Source: Hydrolagus affinis (Eukaryota). Taken from it: a DNA stretch of 64,000 nucleotides. A program made the position numbers and the translations under genes. Position 1 is the first letter of the stretch. Each line of letters begins with the position of its first letter. Shown here piece by piece: positions 10,001 to 13,000 of the stretch. The stretch lies in contig JAAILG010000082.1 of NCBI GenBank assembly GCA_012026655.1, positions 1-64,000 on the forward strand. The letters run 5' to 3'. The notes under the pieces were generated by a model. The model made no database searches. It had not been told where the DNA came from and saw only the letters and a list, made by a program, of their open reading frames with translations.

Positions 10001-13000
10001 CAAATGAAAACACCATAGAGCATACCAATTAGAGATTACTTGCAAAGTAGTAATTTCTCAACTCAGCAAATTGCAACAGTTAGATGGAAACTATTTCACT
10101 TTGGTGTGGTTAACTGTTTCCAGCTGAGGGTGAATCTGTTTGTTGCAATGCGAGAAGAAAATGCTCCATTATGACAACACCTTTTGAAAGGAAGGCAACT
10201 TTACGATAAGGTTAGCAGAGATTCTAATGGCTCCAATTACTCGTGGGTCTCCCGACTCAAGCTCCCAACTCGCTGATCAGCATCAGACGAATGTACATAT
10301 TTATAATTTAACTCTCATTGACTCATGAAATTCACTGTACTTGCACAATCCCTAGAATCATTTGGGGGGAAATTATATACACAGTGCAATTCTGTTTTAT
10401 TTTGTGAACTGAATGGATGTAATTATTAAGTTGGTTGGAGAGACCCAGACATTAATACGTTGAATGAAACAAATCAGTAGATCACTGCCAAACGCAACAC
10501 TCAGCAATAACTTTGCAACAAGCAGCAAAAAAAGACTCTGTTTCTGTTCCAGAAACTGGCCACTTATAATAATCATCACATTTCATATTGCGCCATATCA
10601 CGTACTCTAGACTTCTCAAAGAACTTCATAGAATATACTGTAATGTGAATTGACTGTATATAAACTGTATATATATATCAATGGGTGAAACTCGGCAGCC
10701 AATTGTGCACAGCAGCGTCCCACAAACAGTCGTGGATTGAAGTGACCTATTTACTATTTTTTTTGAGGGATTATTACTATTAATAATATATTATCACTAA
10801 TATATACTAAAGTATTATAATATAATAATAAAATATTATAATGTTAAAATAATATTATAATAATTGTTAGTAATATTTTATTACTAAAAAGAGAGCACCG
10901 TGCAAACAAAATGTTGGAAGCGAAAGTAGCGAGGCTTCACTTTCTGCCTATCAATCAGTATTGGTAACAAACAAGAACAGCATAGAGCAATGGGCAAGAG
11001 GCAGTGACTTACTCTGGGGAAGATTCTGGAGTTAAGCTCGACATCTCTTCCGGTGTAGGTACTACATGGAAGACAACAGAAAGACACGTTTACACTCTAC
11101 TTCAATCAAACACTCTTGTTCCTCAACAAAAGCTGCAAAAACTGTAATTAATCATATCTAACAAGCAGTTTAATACTGTACTTCTGTTCCCCTGATACCT
11201 GGTATCGATCTGCATTGCTCTTGATGTGCCAGAAAATAGACAGAAGGAACTTCAGTAAAGAGAATGAAGCAACAGAACGCGAGCAAAGAAATAGTCACCT
11301 TGTTCAAAAACTATGGATTTTTGTTTATGTTTTAATCCATTTTGATTCAACTGATGCAAGGGGAAACATATGGAAGCTTGCCTGAGTCTGAATGATGGAG
11401 TTAATTTGGCCAGTCCAGATTTATTGGACTTTCAGGCAACTGACACGATGCAGTGCCGGGCCACACCTCTAACTCTTCATTACATTCGAAGCCATCAAAT
11501 TCAGAACGATTACAATCAGAATACTGGAGTGATTGTGAATGCTTTTGATAACTTCTTTTTAGTCCCAGTTATGAGAGATTGTTGAGAGGTTTGTTGAGCT
11601 TTGAGGTTTGTGTGTGTGTGTGTGTGTGTGTGTTTGTGTGTGACCCTACCCTTCATGAGCAGCCATGCTATATAAATGCAAGTTGTTTTTGACCTTCTCC
11701 CTCAAGGTTTAACACCTAGAAATTCACTGAAGAAATGACAATGGATGCTGGATCATTAATCGAAACACAGCTCACCACCATCAAAACTCACCCATTCTGT
11801 TTTCTCCCCTCCCCAAGATGGACAAACTGCCCTTCCCCAGAGCGGTGGAGGGAGTGGGGGAGGGGTTCTAAATTTGGATGTTCTTTGAGACTTGGATTTC
11901 CAGGTTTCCCAGCTGGTAATCCAATTGTCAAAATACTCGCATGCTTAGAATTATACTGGTGACAATAAACATTTACACAGGACGGCGCAAGACACCAAAG
12001 CATTGCCCCCAAACAGTGCTTCCGGAGAGTGGGAGACTATTTTAAGAGTTTCAGACAATGCGCACAATTTGTGTTGTTATAAACCGAGCTGAACTAAAAG
12101 CCAAGAAAATCTTTCATGCCTACAGTGGCACAAGAAATACAAGCCCACCTTACAGTGGAGCGGATGATTGAAGCAGTCCCGGTCTCCCCCAGTCATTGGA
12201 AGAAACAAAATCAGAATGTGCCGAAATGTGGGGCACGGAACCTACCCTGTAATTTCCTGCGATGAAACCGTGGCGATCCAAGAAAACTGTTCTTGATGGA
12301 ATTCAGCCGCGTCCTCCATGGCATCCCTCCAATACTGGGACTGGACGGTGGTGTTGGGTTCGGAGTGCTTGCCGGACTCTCCTTGGGAGTGTGGACTGGT
12401 GTGCCCTTTGGGGTGGGGATGGGACTTCCCCGTGGGGAAGGGTGAGGGGTCACCTGTATTATGGGGATAGATTTGGTGCTTGGATCAGTACTGGGGATCA
12501 ACCTGATAAGAGAAAGCGGGGTAGTCTGGATAGAAGGGACAGACAGTTGGCAAGGAGCTGTGACTGTGGGCTGCTGACCCTGAGTGTTTTGAACAGGAAG
12601 GCTCTGGGGAGGATTTGTTTCTGCCATGACAGCGGGAAGAGGGTTGGATTTTGTGGTCTGCAAAGGCTTTTCTGCCAGTTTGCTTTTAACAGGAAGAGTC
12701 TGCGTATTTGGGTTGGGTTGAAACCCTATCTTTGGTAGAAGCATGTTACTGGGTTTTGTTATGTTTCTGTTACAGTTAGGGTTCAAAGAAGCACGAGTTT
12801 TGGGAAAGAGGGTATGTTCAGGAGTCTGGGGAGGAACAAAAAACTTTCTGATAGGCTACACGACAGACAGCGTCATGCATGTGGTTAAAGGAGAAGAGAC
12901 AGACAGACAGACAGACAAGACAGAGCGTGGAACATAGACACAAATCAGGAAGATGGGAGTGCAGAAAACAAAAAAAAACGTGCTGTTAGGCGGTAGGCAA

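Follow-up and report, generated by a model that had tools for sequence, protein, structure and literature searches.

The BRSK2 locus and the exon 14 extension

On its minus strand the window, meaning the whole stretch of 64,000 nucleotides analysed here, includes two thirds, at the 3' end, of the gene for the brain kinase BRSK2. Fourteen shark BRSK2 segments map collinearly from 39539 to 3003 in a tblastn exon map, and the gene is strongly similar to a Callorhinchus milii model. Exon numbers are those of a preliminary description of this DNA and are consistent with the exon order in the window and with the exon numbered 18 in PMC13743746. The features that define the alternative forms are as follows (a slash marks a splice boundary).

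13304-13364, minus strand: BRSK2 exon 13, 61 nt, ending in phase 0, with a donor (AGG/GTAAGT) common to the short and long forms
12454-12855, minus strand: the 134-codon extension, beginning PIRKFF at distal acceptor 1
12454-12825, minus strand: the 124-codon form, beginning at distal acceptor 2 (cccag/ACT)
12246-12453, minus strand: the exon 14 core, 208 nt, beginning at the proximal acceptor

Translation of 12855-12454 confirmed that these 402 nt (134 codons) run without a stop in the frame of exon 14, as the preliminary description had stated. The extension is flanked upstream by SPLSSPR and ends directly before the exon 14 core. Exon 13 reads CCAAGG/GTAAGT at its end (13304), and its phase 0 there bears out the compatibility claimed for the phase-0 distal acceptor. 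Both motifs picked out earlier, NTQTLP (12708-12691) and TTKSNPLP (12657-12634), are present. At the window's stop frequency the chance of a stop-free run of this length is 0.07%, and when the letters of the extension were shuffled 20,000 times, 0.37% of the shuffles were free of stops. A chance reading frame and an independent gene were both rejected.

Other features of the window lie outside this region. At 2922-2851 (minus strand) the gene has an alternative last segment, to which the C-terminus of P0054, a UniRef Callorhinchus model, corresponds. At 4496-4247 (minus strand) an open frame runs past the exon 17 donor; it includes MTGR and is similar to an optional segment, 'MTGRLSK', known from other species. 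An assembly gap of 132 N at 52395-52526 is clear of the extension.

Three acceptors and their splice signals

The exon 13 donor would join either the proximal acceptor at 12453, giving the short form, or a distal acceptor at 12855 or 12825, giving a long form, and the frame is preserved with all three. Distal acceptor 1 reads ctgtctgtcgtgtag/CCT before 12855, and the proximal acceptor reads cataatacag/GTG. The in-frame acceptor at 12825 was overlooked in the preliminary description and has the best pyrimidine tract of the three (14/17, against 10/17 for 12855 and 10/17 for 12453). The earlier statement that the proximal acceptor itself encodes PIIQ is correct, but the tract of distal acceptor 1 is no stronger than the proximal tract that was called weak. 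A further in-frame AG, at 12579, coincides with the start of a 42-aa insert in P0054.

12858-12982, minus strand: zone free of AG for 127 nt, containing a UC/UG-rich tract and closed by the AG of distal acceptor 1
12884-12890, minus strand: branch-point-like CTTTAAC, putative in function, with a candidate branch A at 12885
12874-12879, minus strand: TGCATG, a putative RBFOX-type element between the branch site and the distal AG
12454-12504, minus strand: the conserved end of the extension (..TKSIPIIQ), which also serves as the proximal acceptor

AG gaps of at least 127 nt number 7 of about 3,800 on the minus strand of the window. The branch-like CTTTAAC reported before the distal acceptor was indeed found, 30 nt upstream of it; a relative represented by RNA contigs from four runs, whose extension shares about 94% identity with that of the window, has CTTTGAC instead (the difference falls at 12886) and keeps the candidate branch A. 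TGCATG, which I take to be an RBFOX-type element, occurs in 16 copies on the minus strand of the 64 kb, and the relative's run X1, whose coverage includes 12874-12879, has no difference listed there. Over the final 225 nt of the intron before the extension, the relative differs at 6 positions, below the silent-site rate (p=0.02), as might be expected close to a regulated splice site. As a lead from motifs alone, splicing here may be regulated by RBFOX or by pyrimidine-tract proteins.

Long BRSK2 isoforms from sharks to human

The preliminary description regarded the extension as hidden. Instead, named BRSK2 isoforms from sharks to human carry its equivalent with equal ends. The 134 residues matched 58 longer proteins (53 named BRSK2 or BRSK2-like, 5 hypothetical) from sharks, rays, bichir, sturgeons, axolotl, reptiles, birds, koala and ruminants. 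The full extension, starting PxRK at the equivalent residue, is present in 52 of the 58, while 4 BRSK2 models begin at the second acceptor; of the remaining two, one model is shorter and the other was unparsed. With the sheep extension as query, 64 proteins were recovered, including those of primates, rodents, rabbit, bats, carnivores, ungulates and anteater. XP isoforms are predictions, some of them perhaps propagated from species to species. The two human forms, isoform 6 (NP_001427594.1, 812 aa) and isoform 7 (NP_001427595.1, 790 aa), both have a 122-aa extension and bear the NP_ prefix of curated RefSeq records. The extension had also been said to be missing from canonical mammalian BRSK2; this holds for the MANE form, which is short, but not for human isoforms 6 and 7 or for other mammals. 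A shark-specific retention was rejected.

The human isoforms and the vertebrate BRSK2 'X' isoforms resemble the window in the position of the extension, its PIRK start, its xIQ/VTPH end and its core. Human and window extensions share 46 of 120 aligned residues, and differ in length (122 against 134 aa) and at position -3 of the first core site, which is Lys in human and Asn in the window. Among the full-length forms aligned, the extension varies from 108 to 154 aa and the frame is never lost. In an alignment of 39 rows, about one per genus, column agreement along the extension is 0.79 at the start, then 0.61, 0.88 in the core, 0.36, and 0.81 at the end, where the final Q is present in 39/39 rows. 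Frame, both ends and core are maintained in all sampled jawed-vertebrate groups and in both paralogues. Annotated isoforms with matching ends thus support the claim of an alternative 3' splice-site extension, and I regard it as almost certainly a real and ancient splice option.

The long isoform is therefore already catalogued; my literature searches, which covered mainly openly accessible papers, found no study of it, and the available parts of PMC9231588 and PMC12779330 do not mention it. AlphaFold2 models of 37 long isoforms have a mean pLDDT of 38 and are poor even in the kinase domain, which makes them uninformative on disorder, and the ESM Atlas returned two matches under 0.8 and no family. 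Elsewhere in the gene, a cassette exon at about 14491-14423 (minus strand), between exons 12 and 13, has as its human orthologue the 22-aa insert of isoform 6, and two copies of TGCATG lie downstream of it, at 14073 and 13976.

The same options in BRSK1 and a shark paralogue

The proposal of an ancestral BRSK1/BRSK2 linker is supported, for the paralogue has a homologous extension with short and long forms. The 120 rows listed include 75 of BRSK1 type: 56 short, 12 long and containing KTQTLP, 3 with a different insert and 4 without the start of exon 14. The BRSK1 genes of lungfish, alligator, fence lizard and a tree frog each appear in a short and a long form, and in fish, amphibians and reptiles BRSK1 is annotated with both options, as BRSK2 is. 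A second gene of sharks and rays, which bears the name BRSK2-like, shows both forms in three sharks. A tree built without the extension places it outside the BRSK2 clade, which comprises 13 rows and has support 100; this tree is a quick version with an open base, and establishes that the shark paralogue lies outside BRSK2 but not that it is BRSK1.

Among 15 listed members of the shark and ray paralogue cluster, the long forms of 14 read P[IV]RKFSVPPQ followed by SPVF, and the fifteenth starts at SPVF. The lungfish BRSK1 long form begins PIRKFSVPPHQ, followed by SPVF, and those of coelacanth, amphibians, reptiles and catfish begin at SPVF or SPIF. The PxRKFSVPP and SPVF/SPIF starts are, on this protein evidence, the apparent equivalents of window acceptors 12855 and 12825. 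Because the short and long forms of the paralogue match all three entry points, the three-acceptor layout would predate the paralogue split, as judged from protein ends.

Non-mammalian BRSK1 and shark and ray BRSK2-like long isoforms thus resemble the window in their three entry points, LQxxxSNPLP core and KS[IV]PxxQ end, and the BRSK1-type core, with its KTQTLP, is of the type shared with the BRSK2 long forms. Tetrapod BRSK1 long forms, unlike the window, start at the second acceptor (SPVF/SPIF), measure 72-114 aa and differ outside the core. Aligned with six fish and amphibian BRSK1-type extensions, the window extension scored 142-207, against shuffle maxima of 68-81. With four reptile and catfish BRSK1 extensions the score was 57-73, reached by 0-13 of 500 shuffles, and three of these four failed to beat all shuffles (5-13/500).

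The preliminary description likened NTQTLP and TTKSNPLP to KTQTLP and SARSTPLP in the longer equivalent exon of BRSK1. The parallel holds for KTQTLP in 22/22 distinct non-mammalian BRSK1-type long forms, and is putative for mammalian BRSK1, which is not known to have a form other than the long one. Two mammalian BRSK1 models (P0159, P0166) lack the motif and are both apparently frame-shifted in the linker; no in-frame mammalian linker was found among the BRSK1 models retrieved. Among gene models considered without genomic DNA, those of hagfish (P0244, P0301) have a short-type linker only, and KTQTLP was absent from the invertebrate-type representatives.

A conserved core with two candidate phosphorylation sites

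12634-12717, minus strand: 28-residue core with sites TQT-L-P and LQxxxS-x-P, the best conserved part of the extension (mean column agreement 0.88 in 39 rows; flanking blocks 0.61 and 0.36)

The core contains two Ser/Thr-x-Pro sites, spaced 17 apart in 68/68 distinct BRSK2 forms and in 16/22 BRSK1-type forms. Its general form would be basic-T-Q-T-L-P followed 17 residues on by L-Q-x-x-x-S-x-P, the second site conforming to [LI][QH]xxxSxP. Site 1 has a basic residue at -3 and Pro at +2 in 67/68 distinct BRSK2 forms and in 22/22 BRSK1-type forms. The window is different, with Asn encoded at 12708-12706, where 37 of 38 other rows have Lys or Arg and the remaining one, from a bat, has Glu. The relative has no listed difference at these positions, so that the Asn may be common to chimaeras. 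Site 2 has no basic -3 in any listed form, but Pro at +2 and the spacing of 17 are present. In the linker of human isoform 7 the threonine of KTQTLP is the sole [RK]xx[ST]xP site among 51 Ser/Thr; shark linkers have one additional such site and that of coelacanth has none.

According to the available text of PMC2860806, 14-3-3 mode I is RXX(pS/pT)XP, with a subtype having Leu at -5 and Ser/Thr at -2, and paired 14-3-3 sites lie 15-40 residues apart in disordered regions. The core resembles a tandem mode I arrangement of this kind in its first site (basic-x-x-T-x-P), in the Leu/Ile at -5 and Pro at +2 of its second, in the spacing of 17, and in its place inside a Pro/Ser/Thr-rich linker. It departs from that arrangement in having Lys rather than Arg at -3 (Asn in the window) and no basic -3 at site 2. 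Phosphorylation of both sites would let an adaptor bind, and a 14-3-3 dimer would be the likeliest single candidate. Literature searches found no report of phosphorylation at the core sites or of a partner, and nothing related to KTQTLP; in its available text, PMC3205853 mentions BRSK only as a kinase creating 14-3-3 sites on KLC2.

I consider it quite probable that the core is a docking module of some kind. That the extension, an alternative 3' form of exon 14 shared with non-mammalian BRSK1, adds a phosphorylation-controlled docking module to the kinase linker is likely too. As for 14-3-3 specifically, I propose it tentatively, and it may well prove not to be the partner.

RNA contigs and substitutions in a relative

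The short junction, from 13304 to 12453, was seen in all four contig runs of the relative. No junction into 12855 or 12825 is listed in these runs, contigs being prone to drop rare forms, and contig depths give no inclusion level. Two of the four runs (X1, X2) cover the extension; X3 and X5 have no coverage there, which in contigs is uninformative. In run X1 the coverage continues past the distal acceptor into the intron to 13080, and because it is continuous with the intron this extension RNA is unspliced. In run X2 contig 6 starts exactly at 12825, with neither intron coverage nor a junction, and this is a hint only of the second acceptor. For this animal, splicing to a distal acceptor is thus inferred from the annotated isoforms of its orthologues.

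In a comparison with the relative, 14.5 differences in the extension change an amino acid and 8.5 are silent (dN/dS 0.52, p=0.20, not significantly below 1), whereas the exon 14 core has 1 and 4 (dN/dS 0.08, p=0.016). The extension contains no indel and the adjacent intron contig contains 13 gap letters.

Record 9 of run X2 has a loose end in which the end of exon 18 (3005) is joined to the start of exon 13 (13364) on the minus strand, with 1 mismatch in 28. This back-splice probably marks a circular RNA that spans exons 13-18; the available text of bioRxiv 10.1101/567164 names a mouse circBrsk2 that has alternative exons.

Alternative explanations

These data raise a sceptical question: could the extension exist in this animal only as unspliced or intron-retaining RNA, its frame a conserved relic from which no long protein is made? 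The read-through of run X1, the four runs with no distal junction listed and a dN/dS not significantly below 1 would all fit. However, a relic would hardly keep its frame, ends and core across the jawed-vertebrate groups sampled and in both paralogues, nor remain free of indels beside an intron with gaps, and long human isoforms exist as NP_ records; I consider this explanation highly improbable. The LC8/DYNLL binding that the preliminary description raised as uncertain, by which the TQT anchor would dimerise the long isoform, is scarcely more convincing. TQT, the anchor of the LC8 motif, is present and invariant (39/39 rows), and the LC8 position -3 is other than Pro in 7/22 BRSK1-type forms. 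But Pro occupies that position in 68/68 distinct BRSK2 forms and Leu is at +2 in 90/90, and prolines before the anchor and a hydrophobic +2, in which the core differs from the LC8 motif, are unfavourable for LC8 according to the available text of PMC6607443. Furthermore, an ELM-type pattern gave 0 matches, and a literature search found no paper on a BRSK-LC8 pair, nor anything direct on BRSK with 14-3-3. LC8 binding is thus disfavoured and very unlikely.

A more serious competitor, though still a rather unlikely one, is that the extension is real but acts chiefly as a spacer, or by way of other motifs, a longer UBA-to-AIS linker loosening autoinhibition or binding proline-reading domains, with no role for 14-3-3. 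The role of variant UBA-AIS linkers is an open question in PMC4686854, 24 of the 134 residues of the window extension are proline, both ends of the extension are conserved as well as the core, and the Lys at -3 is lost in the window animal. On the other side, conservation of the ends may stem from splice signals, and the length of BRSK1-type extensions varies between 72 and 133 aa with a core spacing that is mostly 17, which points to sequence rather than length.

Human variant and significance

The long splice form bears on a human variant. In the available part of PMC13743746, c.1288-2A>G is reported in two individuals, with a predicted out-of-frame skipping of the exon, and is classed as pathogenic with full PVS1; the SpliceAI and Pangolin gains are 0.08 each, with the window of prediction unstated. 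I found there neither a patient RNA test for this variant nor a discussion of an in-frame upstream acceptor. Position c.1288 is the first base of residue 430, that is, the proximal acceptor, and in human the distal acceptor lies 366 nt upstream of it in frame. It is therefore conceivable that c.1288-2A>G, by destroying the proximal acceptor only, might switch splicing to the in-frame long form, although the low splice-gain scores count against this. Such a long form would carry Gln551 changed to Arg, if the codon is CAG.

Taken to its full extent, the proposal would be that a three-acceptor switch predating the BRSK1/BRSK2 duplication toggles a bivalent phospho-docking module of 14-3-3 type in the SAD kinases, that mammalian BRSK1 keeps this module and BRSK2 mostly skips it, and that c.1288-2A>G is not a null allele but forces a long, BRSK1-like BRSK2. 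I consider this combination improbable as a whole. Its elements, namely the shared three-acceptor layout, the reading of the motifs and the prediction for the variant, were not found in print. Annotation of BRSK2 variants uses the MANE form, which is short, and 366 coding bases are consequently counted as intron. Finally, a natural pair of long and short forms with a conserved core of 28 residues makes the question of the SAD-kinase UBA-AIS linker (PMC4686854) directly testable.
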